Origin: Gemmatales bacterium
GTDB taxonomy: Bacteria; Planctomycetota; Planctomycetia; Gemmatales; HRBIN36
Length of the DNA stretch: 64,000 nt
NCBI GenBank assembly: GCA_041640595.1
Contig: JBEPZY010000001.1
Location: 352,001 to 416,000 of the forward strand
Direction of reading: 5' to 3'
Shown here: one piece after another, positions 1,906 through 19,700 of the stretch
Layout of the letters: the number at the start of each line of letters is the position of its first letter
Position numbering within the stretch: position 1 is the first letter of the stretch
Notes under the pieces: model-generated
Told to the model about the DNA's origin: nothing
The model's input: only the letters and a program-made list of their open reading frames with translations
Database searches by the model: none
Position numbers and translations under genes: made by a program

Positions 1906-3090
1906 TTATTTGACCGAATGGTCAACCGCATCTTGCAGCCAGCGCAATCGCGCCAAGGTTACGTCATCGTTTTTCATCCGTGACTGAGAACGCAAGTCGT
2001 TCAAAAATGTGACAATTTCTTGCCCAGCTTGGGGAAGAATGCTCGTGGCCGGGTGCTGATGACCGCGAACGCTTTGCAACTCCTGGACAATCCAGGCCGA
2101 CAGGGCATCCGTAGCCAACCAGATTTCATCTCCGGGCAAGAGTTGCCCATGCCCCAGATGGATGCACTGTTTTTTTAGGTAGCGAATATTGTAGTTGGCG
2201 TCGGTGCTCACCAGGGCAGGCGACACGCTGAAGTCCTTGGCCGTCATCCGGGGAATCATTTGCAACTGCTGTCCGCCGCGAAAGTGAAAAAGGCAATTAT
2301 CGCCGACGACTAACACCCGGTAACTGCAACCTGCGTGGCCGGTTTCCCCGGACAACACGAAATCGGCCACCAGGAGAGTTGCATGGGCACCCTGTTCGGC
2401 TTTGGCTTCGATAAACCAGGGAAGATTTTCCCAGTGCTGATGAGACCGCCACTTTTCTGCCTGCTGGTGGAGCCACTGTAAAAATTTGTGTCTGACCCGA
2501 CCGGAAACGCTTCCGGCAGTCAGGACGGTAAGGAGATCATTAGCAGCCTGGTAAGTGTCGGGACATTCCTGTGCATCCTGAGCCGCGTGGTAAGTGAGCA
2601 GTTGTGCCCACTCGGCGGAGGCATAGGAATCGCTGGCGCCATCACTGATGGCAATAGTAAGTCGGCCCGTGGATTTCCAGTTCCAGACCCGGCGATGGTC
2701 GGTACCGTAATTACTGCAATGATCCACGACGCAGTTGCAGGCATAGGCCCAGGCGTCCTCGCACTCATGAAGCTGATTGCCGAGCTTAGGCAACCGATAG
2801 ATTTCTAAATGCCAACCTTTCTTCAGCCATGTCCAAGCGGCAGGTCGTTCGGGCAATTTTTGCCGGTCACCTTGCTGGCCTTGTAACTGGGGTGAGCTAA
2901 CCGTCGCTTCAACAGACACCGAAACGGCAGGTCGTAATGGCGAGCCGGGATTTTCGGCTGGGGTAGGTCGAGTCCCCTTTTCGTCGCTCGGTAACCTGCT
3001 TTGTTGCAGCAGATTGATTTGCAGCGGATAGTATCGGGCGAATAGGGGACTATTGCGCCAGTGGAACATGCGTAGCCACGACCAGGGCAT
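1906..3090 (-). CDS. PP2C-like protein phosphatase (YegK/TerY-P triad type)
   Basis: Motifs ECEDA, AISDGAS, VGDNCLF, LATDALS and KNDDVT. Sits between the vWA and kinase genes. Start codon uncertain. Confidence 0.8.
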   Translation of the reverse strand: MPWSWLRMFHWRNSPLFARYYPLQINLLQQSRLPSDEKGTRPTPAENPGSPLRPAVSVSVEATVSSPQLQGQQGDRQKLPERPAAWTWLKKGWHLEIYRLPKLGNQLHECEDAWAYACNCVVDHCSNYGTDHRRVWNWKSTGRLTIAISDGASDSYASAEWAQLLTYHAAQDAQECPDTYQAANDLLTVLTAGSVSGRVRHKFLQWLHQQAEKWRSHQHWENLPWFIEAKAEQGAHATLLVADFVLSGETGHAGCSYRVLVVGDNCLFHFRGGQQLQMIPRMTAKDFSVSPALVSTDANYNIRYLKKQCIHLGHGQLLPGDEIWLATDALSAWIVQELQSVRGHQHPATSILPQAGQEIVTFLNDLRSQSRMKNDDVTLARLRWLQDAVDHSVK

Positions 3091-3107: not shown

Positions 3108-3932
3108 TTAGCGAAGGTTTTTCGGGCGGGTGCCAATGTTCAGGAATCGAACGACTTCCGTCATGGGAGCGTTGAAGACGAAGCCGCGTGATCGATAAGT
3201 AACGGGCAGGTTTTCGTTTTGTGCCAGCGAGACAATATGCGGCGGCAAAATGCTGGACATGCGGAACAGTAAACGGGCATGATCGTCAGGCAGGTAAGCA
3301 TCATCTTCAGGATACAGGCAGGGCTGCGCTTTGGTTTCCGAGATGTGCAGGTTGAACAGCAAAACCTGGCCATCTTGGGTAGCCAGTTGGCGAATGGCGG
3401 TTGCTTCATCTTCCGGGTCGCCATCTGTTGGTTGCCCGTCTGTTATGTTGATCACAATAGGCGGGAAGGAGCGAGGATGTGCAGCGACCCAGTGGTTGAG
3501 AATCGCATACGCTCGCCGCAACGCTGCGCACATGGGAGTGCCATCATCGGCCACCGGCTCAACCCACACCGGGAATCGGCGTTCACGCTCCTGGTCCCGA
3601 CGTACTTCGACACGCAGAGGTGACGCAGCCAGTTCGGAAACGCGTACTAACTCCCTGCCACTCAACGCCCCGCCTAATGCCGAACCTACTATTCCCCCTT
3701 GAGCACCATAGCCGATGACGCCAATCTCGTAATAGTCGCGTACGCCTTCACGGGCATCTTTGGTGCAGCGAATGCACAAATCCATGAGCAGACGATTCAA
3801 AGCGTCGGCCAAAGCATCCGCTTTACGTCGGCCGCTTTCATCTCCTACTGGATCACTCATCGAGCCGGATTGGTCAATCAGGAACAGGAAGCAGGTTGGA
3901 TTGCTGCGGCTGATTTCTGCCTCGTAGGCCAT
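3108..3932 (-). CDS. vWA-domain protein (TerY/YegL-like)
   Basis: MIDAS motif DQSGSM, plus GTPM and NITDGQPTD. ATG at 3932 with AAGGAG RBS (ORF track extends to 3977). Confidence 0.85.
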   Translation of the reverse strand: MAYEAEISRSNPTCFLFLIDQSGSMSDPVGDESGRRKADALADALNRLLMDLCIRCTKDAREGVRDYYEIGVIGYGAQGGIVGSALGGALSGRELVRVSELAASPLRVEVRRDQERERRFPVWVEPVADDGTPMCAALRRAYAILNHWVAAHPRSFPPIVINITDGQPTDGDPEDEATAIRQLATQDGQVLLFNLHISETKAQPCLYPEDDAYLPDDHARLLFRMSSILPPHIVSLAQNENLPVTYRSRGFVFNAPMTEVVRFLNIGTRPKNLR

Positions 3933-4210
3933 TGTTGTACTCCTTGTTCTTGGTTTGCTTGAATTCCGCCTGTCCAACTACTTAAACGGAAGTCGTGAAT
4001 TGTTTGTGACACAAAAGTTGCCCGGAATCGTTTGGAGGAGACGATGCAGCGGGGATACGCCTGGGAGCCGTCGTTTACGGAACTGTCATCTTTTGGTCGC
4101 TTGCTGCGTTAAACAACTGGCACATTTCGCCGCGAAAGCTGCTTTCGTGCGAACAACGACTAAGCGGGATTTCTTCAGGCAAAGGAAAGCCAGTAAGGAA
4201 GGAGCATGCC

Positions 4211-4525
4211 ATGTACTTTCTGGTGGCTTACGACATTTCCGATCCGAAACGGTTACAGCGAGTCGCCCGCTTTATGGAACGGCGTGCTTTACGCTGCCAG
4301 AAGTCGGTCTTCATGTACCAGGGTGATGTCCAGGGGGTCAGTCGCCTTTTAAACGAGGTAGTCGAGTTGCTCGATACGCAGTCCGACATTGTGCAGGTCT
4401 GGCAACTGGCGCGAGGTCAGCCCTTGACCGGTTGGTATCGCGGTCGGCCCATGCCGCTGGACCCGGCTGGCTGTGTCGTAGCAGGTAACCGTGCCGTCCT
4501 GGTCGAAAAACCCCGACGGGGCTAA
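4211..4525 (+). CDS. cas2: CRISPR-associated endoribonuclease Cas2
   Basis: MYFLVAYDISDPKRLQRVARFM...CQKSVF signature, 104 aa, GGAG RBS. Confidence 0.92.
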   Translation: MYFLVAYDISDPKRLQRVARFMERRALRCQKSVFMYQGDVQGVSRLLNEVVELLDTQSDIVQVWQLARGQPLTGWYRGRPMPLDPAGCVVAGNRAVLVEKPRRG

Positions 4526-4564
4526 GGGGATTCGACCCTCGCTAATCATGTTTAGCGGCTATTT

Positions 4565-4854
4565 GTGCGAGATGACAGCGGGTTACTTTCTACGCGGGCC
4601 TACGGATACGGTCACGAAGGCAGTCATCCATGGAATCGCCCAGCTCCGTTACTCCCGTAAGTCGGTATAGCTCCCGCGGTGCAACCCGAGCGCTTCTCGA
4701 GGGTTGCTGCGCATGGATTTTCCTGACCCGGTCTCGCGTTCCTACGAAACCAATCAAGCACCGGTTGGCGCCATTGAAAGGGGCCCCGATAGCTGGTGCA
4801 GAAACAGCGTCGCGGGTAGGAAAATTTTTGTCACATCGAACGGTCATCTTGCGT
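4565..4854 (+). ncRNA. Candidate structured RNA between cas2 and the RT gene
   Basis: Nested stems read directly: 4567-4576/4843-4852, 4626-4632/4712-4718, 4642-4672 hairpin, 4681-4687/4701-4707, 4718-4730/4813-4824 and 4758-4766/4791-4799. No credible ORF. Expression is not shown. Confidence 0.45.
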
Positions 4855-4903
4855 TATCTAGGAGGAAGGAAAGTCAACCCATCACACGAAAGGATGCCTA
4901 GCC

Positions 4904-6556
4904 ATGCCAGCGATGAACGGCCAACCAGTGATTGAGGTGTTACCACGGGTTTATCGGAGTATTCCCGCTCCCCAGCGAGCTCTGGAAGAGCTGCAGGCAG
5001 AGCTTTACGCAGAGGTACGGGCGAAAGGTCGGCCCGTCGGCCAACTGGTAACTGCTCTGCTCGACCGCCGCAACTTGTACGCTGCCTGGCGATTTGTCCG
5101 GAATGCCGATGGTGCTGACACCCCGGGGCCGGATGGCCTGACTTGCAAGGACCTGGAACAATCGGCGGATTCCGGGGATGCTTTGCATCGCTTGTTCGAA
5201 CAGATTAGCCGGGACATACTTGATGGCCGTTATTGTCCGCAACCGCCGCGCTGGGTAGAGGTTCCCAAGCCTAATGGTGGTACTCGGCGTTTGGGCATCC
5301 TGACGGTGCGGGATCGCCTTGTGCATGCCGCTCTCAAAAACGTTCTCGAACCTATCCTGGAGCCGATTTTTACTTCCGCCAGCTTTGGTTTTCGACCGGG
5401 GAGAAGCACCACTGCTGCTTTGCTGGCGGCCATTAGATGGGCCGGCCCAGATGATCACGGCCGGCTCGTTTATCCCTATGCCATGCATCTGGATATCGAG
5501 GACTGTTTCGACACCATAGACCACCAGCATCTGTTCAGCGCCCTTTCCGAGCATGTTGCCGATGCTATCGTCCTGAAGCTTCTTCGCAAGCTGTTGGAAG
5601 CCTGTGCCCATTCGGTGCGTCGCTGGTTTCGCACTTACTACGTTGGGCTGTTGCAGGGAAGTGTGCTTTCGCCGCTTTTATGCAATTTGGCTCTGCACTC
5701 CCTCGACAAGGTTATGCTCAACATGCGCAGCGCCACCCAGAAGGGTATCGCTTATTTCCGTTATGCGGACGACTTACTCATCCTGGCTCGCAGCGAAGAG
5801 CTGGCAGTCAAGGCTTTTCGTTCTGCCAGCGCTTTTTTGCAGAGCATCGGACAGCGCTTCAAGGCCCGCAAACCGGAAATCGCTCTCCTCACTCGCGGTG
5901 TCGAATGGCTTGGCATGCGTATCTGCGTCACCGTCAATCCCTGGACCTCGAAACTTCAGCCCGGTTACTACATTCCAGATGCCTGTGTGGCCGAGATGGT
6001 CCAACGCCTTCAGGAAATGACCGTTCCTCCCAGTGCTAAGCTATCGGAGCAAACCTTCGACCTCCGCCAATGGATCATATCTATCAACCGGCAGTTGCAA
6101 GGCTGGCACAATGCCTATCAATACGCCGAGAATTTTTACCAGGTGGCCCGTACACTCGATGACGTTGTTCAGCAGCGGTTCGAAGAGCTTCTGATGGCTG
6201 TCACCGGCAAAGGGCGTCAGTACGTACGGGGCACTTATCGGGTTCGTTTGCCCCGCGGATTCACGACTTGGCAGGTAGATGGGGAGCAGTTGCTGGTGCT
6301 ATCGTCCAAGCCGCCGCATTTCCCCAATCCGAAACTGCTCTACCAACGACCCGCCTGGATGCGTGCTCCGCAGAACGCCATCCTACCGCAAGCCAACGCT
6401 GGCCAGACGCCATTCTGGTTGAACAATTTGCCTCAGCAGGCTCTGCCTCAGCCGCAAGCCCAACCGCCGAATGCCTTTGCTAACCCTCAGGATACCACAA
6501 ATCAACCTGGGCCCCCCACAGGAACTAATCCGGCCACCGGTCAGCACAATCCCTAA
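4904..6556 (+). CDS. CRISPR-associated reverse transcriptase (group II intron-like RT/maturase, not fused to Cas1)
   Basis: RT0 (NLYAAW..TPGPDG), PKPNGGTRRLGI, SFGFRPGRS, LDIEDCFDTIDH, LQGSVLSPLL, catalytic YADD, WLG and thumb-like GW. No HNH domain. Pro/Gln/Asn-rich tail. Located between cas2 and cas1. Confidence 0.92.
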   Translation: MPAMNGQPVIEVLPRVYRSIPAPQRALEELQAELYAEVRAKGRPVGQLVTALLDRRNLYAAWRFVRNADGADTPGPDGLTCKDLEQSADSGDALHRLFEQISRDILDGRYCPQPPRWVEVPKPNGGTRRLGILTVRDRLVHAALKNVLEPILEPIFTSASFGFRPGRSTTAALLAAIRWAGPDDHGRLVYPYAMHLDIEDCFDTIDHQHLFSALSEHVADAIVLKLLRKLLEACAHSVRRWFRTYYVGLLQGSVLSPLLCNLALHSLDKVMLNMRSATQKGIAYFRYADDLLILARSEELAVKAFRSASAFLQSIGQRFKARKPEIALLTRGVEWLGMRICVTVNPWTSKLQPGYYIPDACVAEMVQRLQEMTVPPSAKLSEQTFDLRQWIISINRQLQGWHNAYQYAENFYQVARTLDDVVQQRFEELLMAVTGKGRQYVRGTYRVRLPRGFTTWQVDGEQLLVLSSKPPHFPNPKLLYQRPAWMRAPQNAILPQANAGQTPFWLNNLPQQALPQPQAQPPNAFANPQDTTNQPGPPTGTNPATGQHNP

Positions 6557-6588
6557 TCCTCTGACTCTTTTCCCAGGAGGCACCCATC

Positions 6589-7617
6589 ATGGCGAAGCAC
6601 ATCACCTACGTGCAAACCCCGGTTGCCCATGTGGTCGGACCAGGCAAACTTAGGATTATCAACGGCCGCCTAGCTTTCACCACGGGCAACGGTACTCCCC
6701 TGCGCCTTGACCTCAACACTTTGCGTGCCATTTACTGCTACGGCAACGTCGGGGCAACTGATGAGGCGATACAACTGCTTTTTCAGCACGGCATTGACGT
6801 CGTTTGGCTTTCTCCAGCAGGTAACGAGTGTCGCGGACGACTCGTCCGCTACGATTCCAGCTCCGCTGCTTTGCGGATGATACAGCATCGCGTTTTGGCC
6901 CATCCACCCGCTCGACTGGAACTGGCCCGCTTCATCGTCCAGGCCAAAATTGAATCCCAAATGAAGGCCGCCAGGCATTATCAGCGCCAGGGGCTTTCTA
7001 TTGCCGGCAAATTCATCGAACAACTTCAGTCCGTTTTGGCTATGCTGCCCAGCGTGGCCTCTCTGGACGCCCTTCGTGGCTTTGAAGGACAGGCCTCCGC
7101 TCTCTGGTACGAGCTTTTCTCCCAGCTTCTTGTTCCCCCGTGGACCTTCCCTGGCCGCAACCGCAGACCACCTACAGACCCAGTCAATGCCTTGCTTAGC
7201 CTCGGCTACACCTTGCTCTTCCGCCGCACAGAGGCTAGAACCGAAGCTCACGGCTTGGAAGTCGCTCTGGGAGCTTTGCATGAATTCCGACACGGCCGAC
7301 CTTCCCTGGCCTGTGACTTTGTGGAGCCGTTTCGCGTCCCCGCTGTCGACCGATGGGTCCTGACTATTTGCAATCAACACCGCCTGCAGCCCCAACATTT
7401 CCAAAATACCCCGGAAGGTATCCGTTTGACCCCTGACATGTTTCCTCGTATCATTGCTTCGTGGGAACAACATTTCGTATCTCACGGTTTTGAACGCTCT
7501 TTGGAAAACTGCCTTCAGCAATGGATAAGCATCCTACGGTCCTGGGCGAACCGCTTGCCTGACCCCCTTTTGCCACCCCAGGACAGTGCACCCCCAGGCA
7601 ACACCGTAACTTCCTGA
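6589..7617 (+). CDS. cas1: CRISPR-associated integrase Cas1
   Basis: Motifs LRGFEGQAS, RRPPTDPVNALLSLGY, GALHE and LACDFVEPFR. GGAGG RBS. Adjacent to the array. Confidence 0.95.
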   Translation: MAKHITYVQTPVAHVVGPGKLRIINGRLAFTTGNGTPLRLDLNTLRAIYCYGNVGATDEAIQLLFQHGIDVVWLSPAGNECRGRLVRYDSSSAALRMIQHRVLAHPPARLELARFIVQAKIESQMKAARHYQRQGLSIAGKFIEQLQSVLAMLPSVASLDALRGFEGQASALWYELFSQLLVPPWTFPGRNRRPPTDPVNALLSLGYTLLFRRTEARTEAHGLEVALGALHEFRHGRPSLACDFVEPFRVPAVDRWVLTICNQHRLQPQHFQNTPEGIRLTPDMFPRIIASWEQHFVSHGFERSLENCLQQWISILRSWANRLPDPLLPPQDSAPPGNTVTS

Positions 7618-7748
7618 ACGCAAAACACTTACGTGCAAAAATGTCCTTACTGACAAAGCATCTCAACAAGCCTTTTCGTCGGGATGTCATACCGCTAGGC
7701 AGTTTCCGTTCTTATGTTCCGGCCCATTCGAGCGTTGCGCCCGCCAGA
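7618..7748 (+). promoter_or_regulatory. CRISPR leader
   Basis: Non-coding 131 bp between the cas1 stop and the first repeat. The decayed repeats are at the opposite end of the array. Confidence 0.75.
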
Positions 7749-10700
7749 CTCGCAACTTAGACCCCAACCAATAGGGGATTGAAACGATAGCGGCTACTAC
7801 CATTGTTCCTCCCTCCTTGGGCTCGCAACTTAGACCCCAACCAATAGGGGATTGAAACGCCGGGCCCTGGCCTTCCGGCTGGAGACCAGGGCCAGCTCGC
7901 AACTTAGACCCCAACCAATAGGGGATTGAAACAGTTCTGATGAGAAAGTTATACCCGCCGGCGTAGATGCTCGCAACTTAGACCCCAACCAATAGGGGAT
8001 TGAAACTGCATCTGTTGGCAAAGACTATCAATACCTTTAGAAACTCGCAACTTAGACCCCAACCAATAGGGGATTGAAACCGCCAGGGTTCCGGCCTGTA
8101 TCCGCGCTGCCGCCCCAGCCTCGCAACTTAGACCCCAACCAATAGGGGATTGAAACACTCGCAAGACGGGTATTGGCCTGTATCCGCGCTGCCGCCTCGC
8201 AACTTAGACCCCAACCAATAGGGGATTGAAACGACACTGCTGCCCCAGCAATAATCATGTCCAACCACCTCGCAACTTAGACCCCAACCAATAGGGGATT
8301 GAAACGTCGAAACTACTTCTTGCCCCGCCGCCCCCGCCCGGCTCGCAACTTAGACCCCAACCAATAGGGGATTGAAACCACTGCTGCCCCAGCAATAATC
8401 ATGTCCAACCACCTCCTCGCAACTTAGACCCCAACCAATAGGGGATTGAAACAATCATGTCCAACCACCTCCTTGGGCCCGTTGATAAACTCGCAACTTA
8501 GACCCCAACCAATAGGGGATTGAAACGGTGCGAGGCAGCTACTTCTTGTTTTTGCTACGCCCGCCTCGCAACTTAGACCCCAACCAATAGGGGATTGAAA
8601 CTGAACTTGCACCCTAAGCTTTTCCAGCTCCGCCAGACTCGCAACTTAGACCCCAACCAATAGGGGATTGAAACCATTGCGGCTCCGGCTATCATACTCC
8701 CCTCCTTTGGGCTCGCAACTTAGACCCCAACCAATAGGGGATTGAAACCTCCGGCTATCATACTCCCCTCCTTTGGGCCGAATAACTCGCAACTTAGACC
8801 CCAACCAATAGGGGATTGAAACAATCCGACAATGATGGATACTAGGCAGATTGCGGCTCTCGCAACTTAGACCCCAACCAATAGGGGATTGAAACCACAC
8901 AAACAACAACATCTTGGATAACCTTTGGTAACTCGCAACTTAGACCCCAACCAATAGGGGATTGAAACACCAACCAAACCTCCGATGCCGCCACGCATTC
9001 CCGGCTCGCAACTTAGACCCCAACCAATAGGGGATTGAAACAGCAGACGACCCCTGGCCGGACTCGATGAGTTGCATGACTCGCAACTTAGACCCCAACC
9101 AATAGGGGATTGAAACAGTATCCAACCAAGAATTACACTGACCAGTGCCAAACTCGCAACTTAGACCCCAACCAATAGGGGATTGAAACAATGACCATCT
9201 AACACTTTACCTTCATAAAGACAACCTCGCAACTTAGACCCCAACCAATAGGGGATTGAAACACCGTAGACGCCGAGGATGAGAGGCCTAAGCATTCAAT
9301 CTCGCAACTTAGACCCCAACCAATAGGGGATTGAAACCAAAGACGAGGCCTGCGGCTCCTCACTGGTCCACCCCTCGCAACTTAGACCCCAACCAATAGG
9401 GGATTGAAACACATTTCGTCAGAATCTGTTTGCCCCAACATTAACGCCTCGCAACTTAGACCCCAACCAATAGGGGATTGAAACGGCCAGGAGGAATCCG
9501 ACTAGCACAGATACTAAGGACTCGCAACTTAGACCCCAACCAATAGGGGATTGAAACACTGCCGCGCCGACAACAATCATAATTCTCCCCTCCTCTCGCA
9601 ACTTAGACCCCAACCAATAGGGGATTGAAACCAACGAATTTTGCAAAATTGGTAACGCAGTTTCCAAACTCGCAACTTAGACCCCAACCAATAGGGGATT
9701 GAAACGCGGGCGATGCGGGCCAGTATGAACCCGAGGAGGACCTCGCAACTTAGACCCCAACCAATAGGGGATTGAAACCCCGAGGAGGACAGAAACGAGA
9801 GAAATGCCAGCGCCCTCGCAACTTAGACCCCAACCAATAGGGGATTGAAACGTCTTCTTGGCCCGGGGCTCCCGCCGGGCCCGGCGGGCCTCGCAACTTA
9901 GACCCCAACCAATAGGGGATTGAAACATCATGTCCTCTCCTCCTGCGTCTGGGGCCCGTTGATCTCGCAACTTAGACCCCAACCAATAGGGGATTGAAAC
10001 CGGGCGATGGCCCTGTCGACGGAACTTACGGATCTGCACTCGCAACTTAGACCCCAACCAATAGGGGATTGAAACAGTGGTGCCCGCGCTTCCGCCGCAG
10101 AAGCGCGCCGACCTCGCAACTTAGACCCCAACCAATAGGGGATTGAAACGGGCACTCCAATTGAAGTGGTGCCCGCGCTTCCGCCGCCTCGCAACTTAGA
10201 CCCCAACCAATAGGGGATTGAAACCTTCCCGGCGTCCGCCGCCTGCGGCTCCCCACTGGGCCTCGCAACTTAGACCCCAACCAATAGGGGATTGAAACTT
10301 GCCCGCCGCGGGCCTCGTCAAAGACGAGGCCGCACTCGCAACTTAGACCCCAACCAATAGGGGATTGAAACATCGTTCATCAAACCCATCAACCAAATCC
10401 AACTCACAACTCGCAACTTAGACCCCAACCAATAGGGGATTGAAACAAAAGTACTGCGCCACGCGCTCCATATGGCTGCCTCCTCGCAACTTAGACCCCA
10501 ACCAATAGGGGATTGAAACATACCAGCTCCAACAATAATCATGTCCTCTCCTCCTCGCAACTTAGACCCCAACCAATAGGGGATTGAAACACCAGCTCCA
10601 ACAATAATCATGTCCTCTCCTCCTGCGCTCGCAACTTAGACCCCAACCAATAGGGGATTGAAACTTGCGGGTCTTGCCCCGCCGCCGCTCCCGCCGAGAC

Positions 10701-13700
10701 CTCGCAACTTAGACCCCAACCAATAGGGGATTGAAACCCCGATCAAGAGAGAGACCAAAGCAACCCCCGCCCCTCTCGCAACTTAGACCCCAACCAATAG
10801 GGGATTGAAACACGGCGCTATTTCTTGCGGGTCTTGCCCCGCCGCCGCTCTCGCAACTTAGACCCCAACCAATAGGGGATTGAAACGCCCGGGCCGCCGG
10901 GAGACCCGGATGCGGGCCAGGACACTCGCAACTTAGACCCCAACCAATAGGGGATTGAAACCTTACCTGCCTGTGGCGTGACGCTAAGTCTTGCGGCCTC
11001 GCAACTTAGACCCCAACCAATAGGGGATTGAAACCCGAGAACGACGGAAACGAGCGCTATTGTTGACCCGGCCTCGCAACTTAGACCCCAACCAATAGGG
11101 GATTGAAACCCCGGCTATCATACTCACCCTCCTGCGTTGCGTCTTTCTCGCAACTTAGACCCCAACCAATAGGGGATTGAAACTGAGCCGGCGGTACAAT
11201 TCCCGCCGGTCCTCGGTGGTCTCGCAACTTAGACCCCAACCAATAGGGGATTGAAACCCGGCTCCCCACTGGGCACTCCAACTGAAGTGGTGCCCGCCTC
11301 GCAACTTAGACCCCAACCAATAGGGGATTGAAACTGCTCCCAACACCATTTTTCTCCCCTCCATTTGGGCTCGCAACTTAGACCCCAACCAATAGGGGAT
11401 TGAAACTGTCCCGCCCGGGCCGCCGCCCCCGGCTGCTCCGGGCCTCGCAACTTAGACCCCAACCAATAGGGGATTGAAACCCATGTGGCGTGGCGGGTGT
11501 TAAGACTTGCGGCGGGTCTCGCAACTTAGACCCCAACCAATAGGGGATTGAAACGACGAGGCCGCAGTCAGGGCAGCGGCTGGCCTCCTCGGCTCGCAAC
11601 TTAGACCCCAACCAATAGGGGATTGAAACGGCGTCGACCGGGCGACCACCCGATCGGAATTTGTGGCTCGCAACTTAGACCCCAACCAATAGGGGATTGA
11701 AACGCGGTCAGATCGAAAAGAAAGGACAAAATTATAATCTCGCAACTTAGACCCCAACCAATAGGGGATTGAAACCCCCCCCGCGTTTACCGGCCTTCCT
11801 TGGCCGGTTGCCCCTCGCAACTTAGACCCCAACCAATAGGGGATTGAAACGCCAGTATGAATCCGACCAGGACCGAAATGATAGAAACTCGCAACTTAGA
11901 CCCCAACCAATAGGGGATTGAAACGACCAGGACCGAAATGATAGAAATGGAAGCTCCCAACAACTCGCAACTTAGACCCCAACCAATAGGGGATTGAAAC
12001 CCAACAACATTTTTTTCCTCCACATTTGGTTTTGGCCTCGCAACTTAGACCCCAACCAATAGGGGATTGAAACGATAGAAATGGAAGCTCCCAACAACAT
12101 TTTTTCCTCCCTCGCAACTTAGACCCCAACCAATAGGGGATTGAAACGCCGCTACAATGCGGCAAGGGCGTGGCCGTGCCACTCCTCGCAACTTAGACCC
12201 CAACCAATAGGGGATTGAAACGCGGGACAAGCGCAAGTAGCCGTCGTCACGATCTTTCTCGCAACTTAGACCCCAACCAATAGGGGATTGAAACAATGGC
12301 CGCTCCAGCAATAATCATATTCTCCCTCCATCTCGCAACTTAGACCCCAACCAATAGGGGATTGAAACAGCAATAATCATATTCTCCCTCCATTGGGCCA
12401 GTTGACTCGCAACTTAGACCCCAACCAATAGGGGATTGAAACACAGCGCAAGGCTGGATACTCAACGAAGCCGATGCACTCGCAACTTAGACCCCAACCA
12501 ATAGGGGATTGAAACACCCGGTTACGCCGAGTGAGCCGGCGATACAACTCCCCTCGCAACTTAGACCCCAACCAATAGGGGATTGAAACGGCCTGATGGG
12601 GTTTCCAGTCGCCATCCTGCCCGTGCCCTCGCAACTTAGACCCCAACCAATAGGGGATTGAAACAACTACCACGGCGGCCTGCCTCTGACCCCTAACCCA
12701 GCTCGCAACTTAGACCCCAACCAATAGGGGATTGAAACACGCCGAGTGAGCCGGCGATACAACTCCCGGCGGTCCTCGCAACTTAGACCCCAACCAATAG
12801 GGGATTGAAACTAGGCAGGCCTGATGGGGTTTCCAGTCGCCATCCTGCCTCGCAACTTAGACCCCAACCAATAGGGGATTGAAACAATAGACCTTGCGAT
12901 TAAGTCTGCGGAAGTTCTCATGCTCGCAACTTAGACCCCAACCAATAGGGGATTGAAACTTCTCGCCCGGCTCCTGGGCCTCCGGAGCCGGGCACTCGCA
13001 ACTTAGACCCCAACCAATAGGGGATTGAAACAACAGGTGACGGAACCCTAAACTTCTTCACCTTCGACTCGCAACTTAGACCCCAACCAATAGGGGATTG
13101 AAACACCTTCGACACTTTAACCTCAATGTTACCATCCAGGCTCGCAACTTAGACCCCAACCAATAGGGGATTGAAACTTAGCCTTCCGCAGGACTTCGTC
13201 CGGAACACGCAATCTCGCAACTTAGACCCCAACCAATAGGGGATTGAAACCGTCCCCCCACTACCCCGATGTAGTGGGGGCGGACACCTCGCAACTTAGA
13301 CCCCAACCAATAGGGGATTGAAACTCAAACAGGTGACGGAACCCTAAACTTCTTCACCTTCTCGCAACTTAGACCCCAACCAATAGGGGATTGAAACTGG
13401 CCATACATGCAAGGCGGCCACCTATGCCAGCCAACCTCGCAACTTAGACCCCAACCAATAGGGGATTGAAACCCGGAGCGGACCCGGGCTAGGATAAACC
13501 CAATCAGAACTCGCAACTTAGACCCCAACCAATAGGGGATTGAAACCCGCCGCCGCCCCCGGCTCTTGCCCCGGTCCCGCCGCCTCGCAACTTAGACCCC
13601 AACCAATAGGGGATTGAAACTCCCGGCGGCTCACTCGGAGGTTATCCGGGGCCTCCCTCTCGCAACTTAGACCCCAACCAATAGGGGATTGAAACCGCGG

Positions 13701-16700
13701 GGGCACGCTCGGTTCCTCCGAGTGAGCCGCCGGTCTCGCAACTTAGACCCCAACCAATAGGGGATTGAAACCGACCTTCCTTGGTCGGTTGCCCGCTGCG
13801 GCCCTCGTCCTCGCAACTTAGACCCCAACCAATAGGGGATTGAAACGCAGTCTGGGCAGCGGGTGGTCTCTTCCCTCAACGGCCCTCGCAACTTAGACCC
13901 CAACCAATAGGGGATTGAAACACCCGGGCAAGGATAAATCCGGTTAGCACTGAGATCACTCGCAACTTAGACCCCAACCAATAGGGGATTGAAACTCTTA
14001 CCCTCCATTTTTTGGTCCTTGGGGCCCGTTGACTCGCAACTTAGACCCCAACCAATAGGGGATTGAAACTCCACCGACGCGACTTCTGCACCTTTAAGCC
14101 CTCCTCCTCGCAACTTAGACCCCAACCAATAGGGGATTGAAACTGCTGCTCCGCCTGCTGCTGCTGCTGCTGCTCCCTCGCAACTTAGACCCCAACCAAT
14201 AGGGGATTGAAACAACTTCGATGTGACCACCATCCAGAAGAATCCTAGCACTCGCAACTTAGACCCCAACCAATAGGGGATTGAAACCGCAAAGCACATG
14301 AGATGTATTTGAAAAATCCTAAATCTCGCAACTTAGACCCCAACCAATAGGGGATTGAAACACTGCTGACCCTAGCAGCATCTTTCTCCTCCCTCATCTC
14401 GCAACTTAGACCCCAACCAATAGGGGATTGAAACTGTCCCGCCCGGTCCGCCGCCGGGCGAGGCGGGCCAGCTCGCAACTTAGACCCCAACCAATAGGGG
14501 ATTGAAACGCATCTTTCTCCTCCCTCATGGTCCTTGGGGCCCGTTCTCGCAACTTAGACCCCAACCAATAGGGGATTGAAACAGCATCTTTCTCCTCCCT
14601 CATGGTCCTTGGGGCCCGTTCTCGCAACTTAGACCCCAACCAATAGGGGATTGAAACATCACCCAATTACAAATAGCCGCCGGGATTCTTTCCCCTCGCA
14701 ACTTAGACCCCAACCAATAGGGGATTGAAACGACTTGCCCTGCTGAGGCTCGTCGAAGACGAGCCGGCACTCGCAACTTAGACCCCAACCAATAGGGGAT
14801 TGAAACGAGGTACTCGCAGGACGGGTATTGACCTGTATCCGCGCTCGCAACTTAGACCCCAACCAATAGGGGATTGAAACAGCGGGTGGCTTCCTCCGTC
14901 AACGGCCACCCGCAACGCTCGCAACTTAGACCCCAACCAATAGGGGATTGAAACGGAACGCACGAAACGCACGCAAACCATCCTCTAAACCTCGCAACTT
15001 AGACCCCAACCAATAGGGGATTGAAACAACGCCAGGAAACCTGCCCGTGCGGTGGGCCGCCCTCCTCGCAACTTAGACCCCAACCAATAGGGGATTGAAA
15101 CCGCTATTTCTTGCGGGTCTTGCGCCCCCGCCCCCGGCCTCGCAACTTAGACCCCAACCAATAGGGGATTGAAACAGTAAGATCGCTCTCGAAAGTCAAT
15201 CGCGATGTCCGCCTCGCAACTTAGACCCCAACCAATAGGGGATTGAAACGACAGTAACTCCATCGTTCCGGCAAACTACTTGGTACTCGCAACTTAGACC
15301 CCAACCAATAGGGGATTGAAACGATTCTTGCTCCGCCGACCCCGCCGACCCCGCCGGAGCTCGCAACTTAGACCCCAACCAATAGGGGATTGAAACACTC
15401 TTCGATGTCCTGTACGGGCCTGATGGCACCACCTCGCAACTTAGACCCCAACCAATAGGGGATTGAAACCACCCCTTCTCGCCCGGCTCCTGGGCCTACG
15501 GCAGCCCTCGCAACTTAGACCCCAACCAATAGGGGATTGAAACCGCGATGTCCGCCTCTTCTGGGTTTTCGTCATCCCAACTCGCAACTTAGACCCCAAC
15601 CAATAGGGGATTGAAACGGAATTTATCCTTTTCATTTTCCATAACCTCCTCAAACTCGCAACTTAGACCCCAACCAATAGGGGATTGAAACCTATTAAGA
15701 TGAGGTCGTAATATTACGTTTACGTGCCTCGCAACTTAGACCCCAACCAATAGGGGATTGAAACTTTTTTGAGTAAGATCGCTCTCGAAAGTCAATCGCG
15801 CTCGCAACTTAGACCCCAACCAATAGGGGATTGAAACCTTCGTCCCTTTTCGGCCCATCCTTCTCGCCCGGCTCCTCGCAACTTAGACCCCAACCAATAG
15901 GGGATTGAAACTCAGGAGCCGGGCAAAGTCCGACCCCCGCTACCCCGCTCGCAACTTAGACCCCAACCAATAGGGGATTGAAACGTTCCTTCCTAACATT
16001 ATCTTCTGGTTCGTGTTTTTCGCTCGCAACTTAGACCCCAACCAATAGGGGATTGAAACTTTTATAACTGCTACACGGACCACGGCCTTCCCTCCTTCTC
16101 GCAACTTAGACCCCAACCAATAGGGGATTGAAACCCTGTGGCGGGCGGCTACGACTTCTTGCGCTTCTTCTTCTCGCAACTTAGACCCCAACCAATAGGG
16201 GATTGAAACCACTACCATTCCTACACCTCCTTCCTTTGGTTTTGGCTCGCAACTTAGACCCCAACCAATAGGGGATTGAAACCCCGGGAGATTGGTCTTT
16301 GCCGCCGGGCCCGGGCCAGCCTCGCAACTTAGACCCCAACCAATAGGGGAATTGAAACGCCCATAACATTTCTCTTTCCTCCTGGTCTTTGGGGCCCTCG
16401 CAACTTAGACCCCAACCAATAGGGGATTGAAACGACCACGCCCCCGCCCGGGCCACCGGGAGACCCGGGCCTCGCAACTTAGACCCCAACCAATAGGGGA
16501 TTGAAACCATTTCTCTTTCCTCCTGGTCTTTGGGGCCCGAATACTCGCAACTTAGACCCCAACCAATAGGGGATTGAAACTGACAGCTGCCCATAACATT
16601 TCTCTTTCCTCCTGGTCCTCGCAACTTAGACCCCAACCAATAGGGGATTGAAACGGCCCGGGCGGGGGCGTGGTCTTTGGGGCCCGAATAAACTCGCAAC

Positions 16701-19700
16701 TTAGACCCCAACCAATAGGGGATTGAAACAACATTTCTCTTTCCTCCTGGTCTTTGGGGCCCGAATCTCGCAACTTAGACCCCAACCAATAGGGGATTGA
16801 AACGTAGTACTTTGCGTAGTGCATAATATCCCTCCTATAGCCTCGCAACTTAGACCCCAACCAATAGGGGATTGAAACAACGATAACTTCATAAACGCCG
16901 GATTTTTCAACAAACTCGCAACTTAGACCCCAACCAATAGGGGATTGAAACAGAACACAAACGTTTCAAACTTTGATTTAACCCAGTCTCGCAACTTAGA
17001 CCCCAACCAATAGGGGATTGAAACGACAGACAGCTGCTCCTAGCATGTCCATTTCCTCCGCTCGCAACTTAGACCCCAACCAATAGGGGATTGAAACACC
17101 TGGCGGGTGCGAGGCTAAGTCTTGCGCTTTTTTCTCGCAACTTAGACCCCAACCAATAGGGGATTGAAACTCCGTCTTTGGGGCCCGTTGATAAGACCCC
17201 TCCCTACTCGCAACTTAGACCCCAACCAATAGGGGATTGAAACGCTCTTGTCCCGCTCCCGGCGGGTCCGGGCCCGGCGCTCGCAACTTAGACCCCAACC
17301 AATAGGGGATTGAAACATAATTCCCGGCGGTCCTCGACATCGACCTGCCGGACCTCGCAACTTAGACCCCAACCAATAGGGGATTGAAACGCTGTGGGGC
17401 TAAGGCGGAAACCCCACAATCCTGCCTCGCAACTTAGACCCCAACCAATAGGGGATTGAAACGACGCGGGCAAGCAGGAATCCAATTAGGACGGAGGCCT
17501 CGCAACTTAGACCCCAACCAATAGGGGATTGAAACTCCTGTTACTTCTGAAAGAGTTTCCAGTCGACAAAACCTCGCAACTTAGACCCCAACCAATAGGG
17601 GATTGAAACCGCTTGGACCTGTTCTTGCTGAGGTTGATCAGCTTGCTCGCAACTTAGACCCCAACCAATAGGGGATTGAAACACTACCATTTCCCTTTTT
17701 TAGGAGTTGAAGCTGACCAAACTCGCAACTTAGACCCCAACCAATAGGGGATTGAAACTATAATACCCTCTATAAGGCTTGGCATGGGCCTTAATCCTCG
17801 CAACTTAGACCCCAACCAATAGGGGATTGAAACTCGGCGGGCCGCTTTTCTTTGGAGGGAACGCCGGTCCTCGCAACTTAGACCCCAACCAATAGGGGAT
17901 TGAAACAGAAATGGCCGCTCCGGCTATCATATTTCCTCCCTCCCTCGCAACTTAGACCCCAACCAATAGGGGATTGAAACACTATGTCCCTTCCGTGATA
18001 GAGGTACTCGCAGGACGGCTCGCAACTTAGACCCCAACCAATAGGGGATTGAAACGGCTAAGGCGGAAACCCCACAATCCTGCCTCTGGGCCTCGCAACT
18101 TAGACCCCAACCAATAGGGGATTGAAACCCTCGTCCGTCAACGGCCACCCGCAACGGGGGCACTATGCTCGCAACTTAGACCCCAACCAATAGGGGATTG
18201 AAACGGCCAATGCCGGGTAGATTGTATCTAACGCCACGGGCCTCGCAACTTAGACCCCAACCAATAGGGGATTGAAACACAGGTACACTTTATCAAACCC
18301 GTACTCCTTGCCTTTCTCGCAACTTAGACCCCAACCAATAGGGGATTGAAACGACGCCGTCTGCTACGCGGGGGCTACCGGGCTCCGGCCTCGCAACTTA
18401 GACCCCAACCAATAGGGGATTGAAACACTGGACAACCGGCTCGAACTTCAAGCCAAGACTGGCCTCGCAACTTAGACCCCAACCAATAGGGGATTGAAAC
18501 GTCCGTCAACGGCCACCCGCAACGGGGGCATGCCCGGCTCGCAACTTAGACCCCAACCAATAGGGGATTGAAACGACGTGGCCGCCGGACCCGTCGGATA
18601 TGGCCGCCGTCCTCGCAACTTAGACCCCAACCAATAGGGGATTGAAACGCAATCGCCTTGGGCACCACGGGACGTGGCCGCCGGACTCGCAACTTAGACC
18701 CCAACCAATAGGGGATTGAAACTCCATTTTAATGCCCACGCGGCAATCGCCTTGGGCACCTCGCAACTTAGACCCCAACCAATAGGGGATTGAAACACAA
18801 CGGAAACAATTGCTATGACTGATCTGGCTATCTCGCAACTTAGACCCCAACCAATAGGGGATTGAAACGTTATCCAGATCAACAACCTCAACCTCACAAC
18901 TTCCCTCGCAACTTAGACCCCAACCAATAGGGGATTGAAACTAATGTGTAGTCTCTCATCAGGTTGAATGCCACATTTCTCGCAACTTAGACCCCAACCA
19001 ATAGGGGATTGAAACGTGAAGCTGCGGCTTGTCATATTTGACCTCCTTTCTAACTCGCAACTTAGACCCCAACCAATAGGGGATTGAAACACCGAAACGA
19101 TTGCTACTGCTGCTCCTATAACCATAACTCGCAACTTAGACCCCAACCAATAGGGGATTGAAACGCTGCTCCTATAACCATAATTTCCTCCTGCGTCTTT
19201 CTCGCAACTTAGACCCCAACCAATAGGGGATTGAAACCCTGCCATCGGGCCATCCAGGCCATTGCGGCCCATGCCTCGCAACTTAGACCCCAACCAATAG
19301 GGGATTGAAACATATGAAACCGCATGGTAGAGTTGTTCATTTGCAGGCTCGCAACTTAGACCCCAACCAATAGGGGATTGAAACAATTACTTCAGCATAT
19401 CGCTCAATATATCGGACCATGCTCGCAACTTAGACCCCAACCAATAGGGGATTGAAACTCATATCCTCCCTCCATTATGGTTTGGGCCCGTTGACTCGCA
19501 ACTTAGACCCCAACCAATAGGGGATTGAAACAGCATAACATCTCATTAAGTGAACGCTCTTCCTAACCTCGCAACTTAGACCCCAACCAATAGGGGATTG
19601 AAACGCAAGGGCGTGGCCGTGCCACTCAGCCGGGTTCATACTCGCAACTTAGACCCCAACCAATAGGGGATTGAAACGCAGTCTGGGCAGCGGGTGGCTT

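Follow-up and report, generated by a model that had tools for sequence, protein, structure and literature searches.

In the 64-kb stretch of a Gemmatales bacterium genome analysed here (the window), a compact CRISPR adaptation module was found on the + strand, composed of cas2, a stand-alone group-II-intron-like reverse transcriptase (RT), cas1 and a long array. The cas2 gene (4211-4525, +; 104 aa) was recognized by PF09827 (E = 2.9e-12), TIGR01573 and the PADLOC Cas2 models, and its product is 80-81% identical to those of the related loci L022-L024. The cas2 stop and the RT start are separated by an intergenic region of 378 nt (4526-4903, +) with a promoter-like element and the RT ribosome-binding region. 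The RT gene (4904-6556, +; 550 aa; RVT_1, E = 1.6e-33) is the sole RVT_1 match of the genome. In an alignment of 26 homologues, residues R286, Y287, A288 and D289 are invariant and D290 is present in at least 90%, which places the YADD motif at nt 5762-5773 (+), whereas the C-terminal tail past about residue 490 is of low complexity and rich in P and Q. The RT scored 241.5 bits against group_II_RT_mat, under the 300-bit cut-off of that family, and 209 bits against the PADLOC RT model; its best solved relatives are GsI-IIC RT (E = 1.4e-59) and the Cas6-RT-Cas1 protein 7kft (E = 3e-34). The cas1 gene (6589-7617, +; 342 aa; PF01867, E = 6e-74; TIGR00287) encodes a protein 70-73% identical to those of L022-L024. 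The RT reading frame ends at 6556, and a stop codon and 32 nt lie between it and cas1; the two genes do not form the single frame of an RT-Cas1 fusion, and the same split is seen throughout the RT clade. The two proteins match successive parts of the 617-position PADLOC Cas1_IIIb profile, read as a fused RT-Cas1 model, with the RT at positions 45-288 and Cas1 at 344-554.

The leader, read from the sequence as the 131 nt from the end of cas1 to the first repeat (7618-7748, +), is followed by a CRISPR array (7749-25934, +) of 247 repeats of 37 nt and 246 spacers of 33-40 nt. All repeats but the last are identical (246 of 247). The sequence-only reading of this DNA had described an intact, unfused YADD RT 32 nt upstream of cas1, with cas2 in front and a huge array behind, and the Pfam matches, coordinates and repeat count agree with it. 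With its intact YADD, an RT adjoining cas1, cas2 and an array, the locus has the features of an RT-CRISPR locus. Transcription of the array is taken to run along the + strand. Positions 3900-4647 and 4668-7776 are covered by RNA-library contigs, the second of which reaches into repeat 1, and one of them extends 877 nt upstream into an oppositely oriented neighbour gene; these contigs may be DNA carry-over. Since this evidence consists of contigs, one of which enters a gene on the opposite strand, it establishes neither transcription nor an operon.

No cas6, cas10, csm/cmr, cas3 or cas13 family was found in a Pfam scan of 42 longer non-overlapping ORFs, drawn from the 102 window ORFs of at least 100 aa; those Pfam-blank window ORFs that were re-scanned with PADLOC and NCBIfam gave no effector family, and whole-genome searches for RAMP genes and two Cas6 families had zero matches inside the window. 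The earlier statement that no effector gene lies beside the module in the 64 kb is therefore confirmed among the ORFs scanned. The further suggestion that the module feeds a type III effector encoded elsewhere was likewise supported by the genome search, in which type III loci were found at four sites and an orphan cas6 gene on each of contigs C5 and C7. The type III loci comprise III-B (cmr1-6) together with I-B on C8, III-A on C20/C23, and two III-D-like loci at C1:14-23 kb, about 336 kb from the module, and at C3:409-418 kb. The clade RT (E <= 1e-200) was detected in 11 of the 201 genomes of the order. RAMP genes occur in 10 of these 11 genomes versus 48 of the 190 others, a comparison between related genomes that are not independent; the one exception, G180, is 86% complete. 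Since TIGR03986 exceeded its cut-off in just 4 of these 11 genomes, the search points to no one effector as the partner. Within 6 kb, 13 of the 15 relatives' loci had no type III gene, the exceptions being L040 with a TIGR03986 RAMP and L033 with a weak CARF match.

The order cas2-RT-cas1-array recurs in about 25 Planctomycetota loci. In the 25 loci L022-L045 and L082 (RTs at least about 33% identical), cas2, RT and cas1 stay together as far as the contigs extend; cut contigs leave L039 without cas2 and L042 and, outside these 25, L097 without cas1. Both the order and an intact YADD are kept from 66% down to about 33% RT identity, and within the sampled loci this lineage is limited to Planctomycetota. 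The conservation of the RT-cas1 linkage across relatives argues against a chance insertion. In a quick, preliminary RT tree, the RT falls within a 23-row clade (SH-aLRT 96) that is separate both from the 15 rows of fused RT-Cas1 and from the 22 RT-only rows, the latter taken to be introns and other RTs. The grouping with mobile intron RTs and the loss of linkage to cas1 in relatives, which the sequence-only reading had named as grounds for abandoning its proposal, were thus not found. Its view of the gene order as atypical did not hold as a sign of novelty: cas2-RT-cas1 is the norm of this lineage, and RTs unfused but beside cas1, as well as RT modules without effectors, have already been published (PMC5513706, PMC6013744, PMC5541045). 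The module is for this reason a further member of the published RT-linked adaptation systems, and the gene arrangement itself is not new.

In the published accounts, the RT is described as not fused to Cas1 in clades 9 and 13 and, for some of the members, in clades 4, 5 and 7 (PMC5541045, PMC6013744), and roughly half the RT-cas loci are reported without effectors, with action in trans proposed (PMC5513706). The RT-CRISPR type III modules of these papers (PMC5513706, PMC5541045, PMC6013744) are similar to the present one in their group-II-intron-like YADD RT, cas1, cas2 and array, and also in the effector-free locus, the type III genes elsewhere and the untraceable spacer sources. They differ in order, cas2-RT-cas1 here and RT(-)cas1-cas2 there, the numbered clades 1-15 having been compared by text only. 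Brocadia and Pirellula staleyi are the Planctomycetes named in those passages of the 2017 supplement that a term search brought up, and the term Gemmata gave no occurrence. RT-Cas1 systems are reported to take spacers from RNA, with the antisense orientation favoured (PMC6821258, PMC8632793). The Cas6-RT-Cas1 of Marinomonas mediterranea and the RT-Cas1 proteins of Fusicatenibacter saccharivorans and Vibrio vulnificus (PMC8632793, PMC6821258), as well as the Thiomicrospira protein 7kft, belong to the same RT family, and the fusions share with the present system, as far as described in those papers, the antisense lean of the spacers and the absence of a PAM. Here, in contrast, RT and Cas1 are separate proteins without a Cas6 domain, known from sequence alone. 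Each of the three experimentally validated systems that the 2021 review presents is a fusion, and the function of the unfused RT is consequently extrapolated from them.

Turnover of the array was assessed against L102, whose flanks show 1 mismatch to those of the window in the regions compared. The 64 leader-proximal spacers of L102 are all absent from the 246 of the window, and one DNA contig ends at 7747, the point where the spacers diverge; judged from these sequences, spacer turnover in the RT array is very fast. The repeat was found in no other array of the genome, yet its 3' end, GGGATTGAAAC (11 nt), is also that of the C8 array repeat, and by reading of the printed repeat the C20 repeat likewise ends in ATTGAAAC. 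The 8-nt AUUGAAAC tag is common to all three array types of the genome.

The spacers were compared with those of the RT-less I-B/III-B array C8/C10 of the same genome (317 and 27 repeats, 341 spacers). Resemblance to another spacer was found for 137 of the 246 RT-array spacers versus 42 of 315 in C8, and 198 similar pairs were counted in the RT array versus 3 after shuffling. Among the near-exact overlaps, 110 of 113 share one orientation and 33 are no more than 3 array positions apart; the full set of 198 similar pairs contains 34 that are equally close, versus 4.8 expected at random. Neighbouring spacers overlap by at least 14 nt at unphased offsets. A similarity cluster of 53 spacers, about a fifth of the array or more, falls on one short gene family, and in the layouts the spacers tile, invariably in antisense, several variants of a short gene whose peptide is hydrophobic and rich in Arg. 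Since many spacers aim at this one family, the counts are not independent. The motif GGAGG-N3-9-ATG, a Shine-Dalgarno sequence followed by a start codon, is carried by 32 of the 246 spacers when the target-sense strand is read and by none on the crRNA-sense strand, versus 0 and 3, respectively, of the 341 C8/C10 spacers. The per-spacer GC skew is -0.147 in the RT array and +0.021 in C8/C10 (Mann-Whitney p = 5.6e-16), and -0.143 for the 108 unclustered RT-array spacers. No PAM was apparent, CC at -3,-2 being present in 5 of 43 inferred flanks versus 32 of 36 C8 protospacers on the co-resident element C15. Two further strand tests were less informative. A codon-usage classifier, 74% accurate on host fragments, gave antisense fractions of 0.63 and 0.62 and did not separate the arrays, and a longest-open-frame test on the rebuilt contigs ended in 23 ties of 33.

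The sources of the RT-array spacers proved difficult to trace. The only match in the own genome was that of spacer 243 to C15 (25/27 nt), an element on whose 9 ORFs PHROGs found zero families. No match was obtained by megablast with the RT-array spacers against GenBank phages, and searches of IMG/VR with three patterns returned 0, 18 and 0 stretches, the 18 matching spacers over only 14-18 nt, consistent with chance. When the whole array was compared with the 201 genomes of the order, repeat matches were confined to the genus, and three borderline partial matches (E = 5e-4 to 8e-4; the one inspected was 27 nt with 2 mismatches) were not accepted. As no protospacer was found in these searches, the target strand is deduced solely from composition and from the starts and stops that were reconstructed. 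A similar situation is described for Arthrospira platensis in Silas et al. 2017: each genome has an array linked to an RT together with an RT-less array, protospacers can be traced for the RT-less array and are essentially absent for the RT-linked one, and close strains differ extremely in their spacers. Here, one assembled array is redundant enough for its targets to be partly rebuilt, exposing the strand and gene-start bias.

These observations are best explained, with good confidence, by an autonomous RT-assisted adaptation module in which Cas2, a free-standing group-II-intron-derived RT and Cas1 serve their own leader and array and supply guides in trans to type III complexes. The RT and Cas1-Cas2, presumably in contact, would capture short pieces of foreign transcripts, an RNA substrate being the likely one, in a PAM-free manner; these would be inserted at the leader end, mostly oriented so that the crRNA complements the transcript. 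One of the genome's stand-alone Cas6 proteins would cut the + strand pre-crRNA to leave the 8-nt tag, and the crRNAs would be loaded on III-D-like, III-B or III-A complexes, whichever is the partner, that attack transcribed invaders. A bolder version, a reasonable but tentative possibility, holds that the free-standing RT, acting with Cas1-Cas2 in trans, might record RNA in nature, strongly favouring the 5' parts (RBS and start codon) of foreign transcripts that are short and abundant; insertion would be directional and would make almost every crRNA antisense. In that case this one assembled array would preserve, in readable form, RNA-templated acquisition as it happens in nature, and the Planctomycetota cas2-RT-cas1 lineage might represent an undescribed clade whose unfused state is stable and working. 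The array content fits such RNA-derived capture, as far as the spacers themselves can tell, without proving it. The earlier claim of unusually productive RNA-derived acquisition is accordingly retained in part: the very fast turnover and the RNA-like signatures favour it, but the RT-less array is longer (317 and 27 versus 247 repeats), and an RNA origin is what we infer.

The spacers could instead have been taken from DNA in the usual way, with the RT accessory or idle and the one-strand, start-rich content produced by later selection favouring crRNAs able to pair with transcripts made early and in abundance. RT-less type III systems are described as acquiring spacers by conventional machinery during phage infection (PMC7515739). 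Antisense spacers could become enriched through nothing more than selection by type III interference, and use by type I-B may be enough to set the C8 array apart. The equal weak antisense lean of the RT-less array in the codon-usage test is also in line with capture from DNA, and RNA-only features such as splice junctions were not seen in the spacers. Nevertheless, a 53-spacer cluster with unphased overlaps of at least 14 nt on one short gene family would rarely be expected from the DNA of a multi-kb element; C15 was sampled 36 times by the I-B module and just once, imperfectly, by the RT module; and the RT is intact and conserved beside cas1 in about 25 loci. Capture from DNA is thus considered rather unlikely.

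The locus bears on what RT-linked arrays record in nature, to our knowledge a question since 2016-2017, such spacers almost never matching anything. Within one genome, the 246 spacers of an RT-linked array can be set against the 341 of an RT-less one, with a co-assembled mobile element sampled essentially by the RT-less module. The redundancy of the RT array allows targets to be rebuilt and yields predictions about the strand, about a bias toward gene starts and about a hot spot in a small gene for a hydrophobic peptide, checkable in the hot-spring metagenomes and metatranscriptomes that already hold the locus, the host appearing to be a hot-spring organism. Additionally, a natural set of unfused RT and Cas1-Cas2 would lend itself to biochemistry and could serve RNA-recording tools.

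The cas2-RT gap had been taken in the sequence-only reading for a structured RNA, a large structured insert, and this part was not upheld. The + strand of 4526-4903 has a minimum free energy of -124.6, whereas shuffled versions average -126.65 (z = +0.30) and 56 of the 100 are equally or more stable; the - strand gave z = -1.54, and Rfam returned nothing over the gap, either at the gathering cut-off or at E up to 10. The gap is 73.8% identical to that of the 84%-identical relative L103, close to the 72.6% of another intergenic stretch and below the 79-95% of the coding regions. A functional structured RNA, such as a template or primer for the RT or a regulator, is thus very improbable: the gap is long, retained with few indels in L103 and covered by RNA-library contigs, but these break at 4647/4668 and may be DNA carry-over, and in the more distant L022-L024 the gap measures 199-289 nt and shares, by eye, little beyond a TTTGTCAC-like element (reduced to TGTCAC in L022) and the RBS region. 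In several remoter clade members it is much shorter, as estimated from match coordinates. The ORF at 4630-4935 has no family match, and the L103 alignment contains 1-, 3- and 4-nt indels in the region. A pseudogene in the gap was set aside because this ORF has no family, and a degenerate repeat because ATTGAAAG, as judged by eye, lies out of register with the CRISPR repeat.

A reading of the RT as what remains of a group II intron once inserted between cas2 and cas1, with the gap as ribozyme remnant and no role in adaptation, is largely refuted already and hardly credible: the best RT family and the nearest solved structures are those of RTs from group II introns, and the published origin scenario, as outlined in PMC6013744, begins with an intron insertion, but the RT is below the family cut-off and present in a single copy in this genome, mobile introns often having several, a Rfam search of 3900-8000 at E up to 10 gave only weak CRISPR-repeat models and no intron RNA family, the gap folds like its shuffles, the gene order and YADD persist across divergent relatives, the RT clade is apart from the RT-only rows, and RT and Cas1 fit two halves of the Cas1_IIIb profile. 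The gap most likely carries the RT-cas1 promoter rather than a functional RNA, and contains the promoter-like conserved element AAAATTTTTGTCACATCGAA (4821-4840, +); sites found in a scan for consensus promoters and terminators were no commoner than in shuffles. Short direct and inverted repeats were also noticed between the regions upstream of cas2 and upstream of the RT, and were judged to be possible chance matches.

The cas2-RT-cas1 cluster and the CRISPR array behind it form a real, intact RT-linked adaptation module, in a source genome (4.45 Mb in 42 contigs) that carries in total two cas1 genes and one reverse transcriptase (RT). The genes are as the sequence-only reading had described them: cas2 (4211-4525, 104 aa) is followed by an intact RT (4904-6556, 550 aa) and by cas1 (6589-7617), which starts 32 nt past the RT stop, with a large array behind. 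The RT start was placed at 4904 because the N-terminus is conserved in the six closest homologues, and in an alignment of the window RT with 25 homologues R286-Y287-A288-D289 were invariant and D290 nearly invariant. The nearest solved chains were group II intron RTs (GsI-IIC RT, E 1.4e-59), and the Cas6-RT-Cas1 structure 7kft matched at E 3e-34. The PADLOC profile Cas1_IIIb (617 positions), which was taken to describe an RT-Cas1 fusion, was matched by the window RT at 45-288 and by the window Cas1 at 344-554. The named homologues of the RT belong to Gemmatales (Planctomycetota) and to bins from hot springs, and the locus is present in public runs of hot-spring and microbial-mat metagenomes. 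A leader of 131 nt separates cas1 from the first repeat of the array (7749-25934), which consists of 247 repeats of 37 nt and 246 spacers of 33-40 nt; 246 of the 247 repeats are identical, the odd one being the last and bearing an insertion. The + strand was taken as the transcribed strand because the array lies downstream of the cas genes and leader, the variant repeat stands at the distal end and the repeat ends in ATTGAAAC. This ending is the usual 8-nt crRNA tag in type I and type III systems, and the tag on mature crRNAs of the RT array is presumably AUUGAAAC. The last 11 nt, GGGATTGAAAC, are common to the RT-array and C8 repeats in the crRNA sense, and the repeat on contig C20, read by eye, also has the ATTGAAAC end.

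The value of the locus lies in its array, and the clearest sequence-based signature obtained came from setting it against the RT-less array of this genome, which has 317 repeats beside the III-B/I-B locus on contig C8 and continues on C10 with 27. Among the 246 RT-array spacers there were 198 similar pairs, against 23 and 1 among the 315 and 26 spacers of C8 and C10, respectively; clustered spacers, those similar to at least one other, numbered 137/246 in the RT array and 42/315 on C8, and the largest clusters held 53 and 3 spacers. The pooled GC skew was -0.133 for the RT array and +0.013 for C8, and the mean per-spacer skew was -0.147 against +0.021 for C8/C10 (Mann-Whitney p 5.6e-16), with the 108 unclustered RT-array spacers at -0.143 (p 2e-7 against zero). 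The coding strands of the host have a skew of only +0.02 and the ORFs of the mobile contig C15 one of +0.116, and the sign is suggestive of crRNAs antisense to foreign coding strands. The motif GGAGG-N3-9-ATG was found in the target sense, i.e., in the reverse complement of the spacer, in 32/246 RT-array spacers and 0/341 C8/C10 spacers, whereas in the crRNA sense it occurred in 0/246 and 3/341, respectively. A looser SD-start motif gave target/crRNA-sense counts of 48/4 for the RT array and 6/15 for C8/C10. Some two thirds of the 32 spacers with the motif fall into one small-peptide family, and by eye about six further gene starts could be made out. Two strand tests failed to tell the arrays apart: a codon-usage classifier, correct on 74% of host fragments, returned antisense values of 0.63 and 0.62 for the RT and RT-less arrays, respectively, and open-frame length produced 23 ties in 33 rebuilt contigs.

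The redundancy of the RT array allowed parts of its targets to be rebuilt. Of the 198 similar pairs, 182 were in the same orientation and 34 lay within three array positions (4.8 expected at random), while per-spacer shuffling left 3 similar pairs. Near-exact overlaps (at least 95% identity across at least 14 nt) numbered 113, of which 110 were in the same orientation and 33 within three array positions; their offsets ranged from -23 to +25 and were unphased. In unscored layouts made by eye, the reverse-complemented overlapping spacers gave a 5' region, GGAGG, ATG and a short-peptide coding sequence. The peptide of this hot spot starts with M-(I/L/V)-(I/L/V)-x-G-A-A and a hydrophobic stretch and ends in an Arg/Gly-rich tail and K-K-x-stop, followed by a G+C-rich hairpin (likewise by eye and unscored). 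The gene is represented by at least six sequence variants among the spacers, and the spacers of this family are non-independent events. Other layouts of the same unscored kind gave a 142-nt stretch containing hairpins and a frame that bears a CPDCG motif and closes with TAA. In the reverse complement of spacer 121 (16700-16780), the Gly/Arg-rich part of the hot-spot gene seems, by eye, to follow straight on its 5' leader, which could reflect template switching or a target variant with a deletion.

For the RT array, spacer overlaps allowed 43 5' flanks and 41 3' flanks of the targets to be deduced, and no preferred base was found at either protospacer end among them; CC at protospacer positions -3,-2 was present in 5/43 cases, compared with 32/36 for the RT-less array. 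The latter array has 36 spacers matching C15 (9,585 bp, GC 0.498), including 22 of the 26 leader-proximal ones; a 5' CCD PAM marks these protospacers, 32 of the 36 lie on one strand, and relative to the underlying ORF 28 spacers have the same sense, 5 are complementary and 3 fall outside the listed ORFs. A PHROG search with nine C15 ORFs gave no match, and C15 looks like a mobile element in ongoing conflict with the host population. RT-array spacers gave only chance words of 15-20 nt against the host genome, except for spacer 243, which matches C15 at 25/27 nt, and no protospacers of this array were found in GenBank phages, IMG/VR (three patterns) or 201 genomes of the order. The contrasts between the arrays indicate that this cell has two adaptation modules that draw on different pools and follow different rules. 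The sampling by the RT array, which is PAM-free, one-stranded, redundant and rich in gene starts, would be the expected product of abundant-transcript capture, a candidate origin of these spacers.

The turnover of the RT array is high in absolute terms, as judged from the leader-proximal part of one metagenome contig, L102, the RT-less array being known from one strain. The compared flanks of this contig (three upstream genes, both intergenic stretches, cas2 and the RT start) differ from the window by one mismatch and a few alignment gaps and its RT protein is 100% identical, yet 0/64 of its leader-proximal spacers are among the 246 of the window, the best ungapped agreement being 24 nt. Other samples gave contigs that extend across cas1 and the leader and begin to differ past a repeat. 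Contigs from an RNA library (run X11) span 3900-4647 and 4668-7776, with pieces in X17 and X18, although DNA is possible in such libraries; one RNA-library contig reaches 877 nt upstream, into the oppositely oriented neighbour gene.

The module had been thought to lack effector genes beside it and to feed a type III effector encoded elsewhere, and both claims held. Pfam, run on the longer non-overlapping ORFs of the window (42 of 102 of at least 100 aa), revealed no cas effector and instead housekeeping genes (the nuo operon, clpX, sucCD and others), PADLOC and NCBIfam found no effector among the re-scanned Pfam-blank ORFs, and RAMP domains occurred at 14 places in the genome with none in the window. 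The search for cas6 and cas10 in the rest of the genome was positive, and CRISPR components are spread across at least seven places. A III-B system (C8:21-38 kb) comprises cmr1-6 and adjoins I-B genes, seemingly without cas8 (cas7, cas5, cas3, cas4 and cas1), and a III-A system (C20/C23) has csm1-5, a CARF protein, a cas6 fragment and a small array. Two loci are III-D-like, one on C1 (14-23 kb) with TIGR03986, Csx19 and Csx7-like and Csx10-like RAMP fusions, and the other on C3 (409-418 kb) with HD-Cas10 and Csx10 and Csx7-like genes, with IS5 fragments close by. No CRISPR-like array was found near either by a k-mer scan, and their guides must therefore come from an array elsewhere. Orphan cas6 genes sit on C5 (156787-157536, TIGR01877) and C7 (73991-75145, PF10040, followed by a TIGR02619 CRISPR-associated protein), both amid housekeeping genes (ribosomal protein S1, trpC and a peptidyl-prolyl isomerase). 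The RT array probably serves type III effectors encoded elsewhere. Some 336 kb separate the C1 III-D-like locus from the RT module; the fused RAMPs of this locus (C1:14280-23000) measure 827 aa (TIGR03986, 333 bits), 507 aa and 791 aa, and no cas1 was seen among the scanned ORFs nearby. The I-B Cas1 (C8:22441-23817, - strand in its extract) has 458 aa, of which the first ~155 residues fall outside every Cas1 model, and the next ORF (236 aa), where cas2 would be expected, had no NCBIfam match.

The association with type III was also followed across relatives. Among 201 genomes of the order, RT-profile matches were bimodal: an RT of this clade (E ≤ 1e-200) was present in 11, including the window's own and all three other genomes of the genus, and 11 further genomes, several of them multi-copy, scored 1e-60 to 1e-73 and were read as having other RTs. 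RAMP genes were found in 10/11 clade-RT genomes versus 48/190 others (raw counts from genomes that are kin), the sole exception (G180) being 86% complete; TIGR03986 exceeded the cut-off in 4/11, so that the module accompanies type III systems without being tied to any single subtype. In three genomes (G159, G094 and G155) RAMP genes share a contig with the RT, at a distance of ~5-19 kb. At the loci themselves, where 95 flanking ORFs were searched (up to 6 kb per side), a type III gene was found in 1/15 relatives (L040, a TIGR03986 RAMP beyond the array); L033 had a weak CARF match (3.8e-7), and the other 13 had housekeeping or unnamed neighbours. A module that accompanies type III systems of varied subtype is what Silas et al. 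proposed (PMC5513706): they found effector genes missing from about half of RT-cas loci and considered that such a module may act in trans.

The cas2-RT-cas1 order, which had been called atypical, proved to be a conserved trait of the lineage. A survey of one genome per species gave 80 loci. As judged by tblastn with Cas2, RT and Cas1 of the window and by ORF tracing, 25 loci form a close family (L022-L045 and L082, with L097 in addition; RT identity 66% to ~33%). Within it cas2, RT and cas1 occur together wherever the contig extends far enough, one gene being absent from each of three cut contigs (L039, L042 and L097), and arrays lie downstream in most. The order is cas2-RT-cas1 in 16 traced loci; cas1 is elsewhere on the locus in three (it stands upstream of cas2, in L029 and L030 on the other strand), and L035 and L037 have RT-cas1-cas2. 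The bulk of the more distant matches (~30-38% identity) consisted of RT-Cas1 fusions followed by cas2 (Actinomycetota and Burkholderiales), the others being RTs without a cas gene. In a quick maximum-likelihood analysis of 71 RT rows (SH-aLRT support only), the window falls in a four-row group (support 100) within a 23-row clade (96) that, cut contigs aside, holds solely stand-alone forms with cas2 upstream; with further Planctomycetota stand-alone forms it makes a 29-row set (96). The 15 fused and 22 RT-only rows fall outside the window's clade; the RT does not group with RT-only forms, and its linkage to cas1 is kept in relatives. Two rows of the clade are labelled Alcaligenaceae, which we suspect to be a binning artefact.

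The module is a further member of the already known RT-linked adaptation systems. Unfused RTs are described for clades 9 and 13 in PMC6013744, which also proposes a history of intron insertion, adjacent RT, fusion and Cas6 gain; members of clades 1, 4, 5, 7 and 9 are given as stand-alone RTs in PMC5541045 (Table 1), and a 2021 review counted 15 RT clades (PMC8632793). According to PMC6821258 and PMC8632793, RNA capture is demonstrated in three systems, all fusions, and new spacers lean antisense even without effectors. The natural sources of RT-linked spacers are termed "enigmatic" in PMC5513706, and a term search of the 2017 supplement returned the Planctomycetes Brocadia and Pirellula staleyi and no Gemmata. 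A limited literature search found no prior report of a gene-start (ribosome binding site) bias of RT-Cas1 spacers, a weak negative.

Directly upstream of cas2, on the opposite strand, lie genes that match the PADLOC models TerY (3108-3977, E 2.3e-95), PP2C (1906-3090, 1.6e-27) and STK_OB (547-1887, 2.3e-61), a trio that we take to be the TerY-P candidate anti-phage system. L102 and L103 (the latter a metagenome contig with 84% identity across 5.3 kb) have the same neighbourhood, so the RT module stands within a small defence island. A 952-aa ORF at 56819-59677 (+) had no match in Pfam, NCBIfam or PADLOC.

The stretch between cas2 and RT (4526-4903) had been proposed as a structured RNA, a proposal that found no support and is best dropped. 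Its sense strand folds at -124.6 kcal/mol against a shuffle mean of -126.65 (z +0.30; 56/100 shuffles equal or better) and its antisense strand has a z of -1.54, Rfam gave no match, either at gathering thresholds or with E relaxed to 10, and its identity to L103 (73.8%) is at the level of the other intergenic stretch (72.6%), compared with 79-95% in five coding stretches. The alignment with L103 has indels of 1, 3 and 4 nt, and an ORF within the gap (4630-4935, 101 aa) had no family match. In the three relatives L022-L024 (RT identity 62-66%) the gap measures 199-289 nt and shares by eye little besides a TTTGTCAC-like element, ~60-80 nt upstream of the RT start, and the ribosome-binding region; TGTCAC occurs in L022 only. 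We infer that the gap is a promoter region for RT-cas1; a consensus sigma-70 scan gave no excess of sites over shuffles. Upstream of cas2 stands a palindromic TTTGTGACACAAA (4003-4015), half of which, TTTTTGTCACA, recurs in front of the RT (4825-4835); this half-site is conserved in L103 and partly in L022-L024, and the two elements may represent a regulator site common to both or a promoter element.
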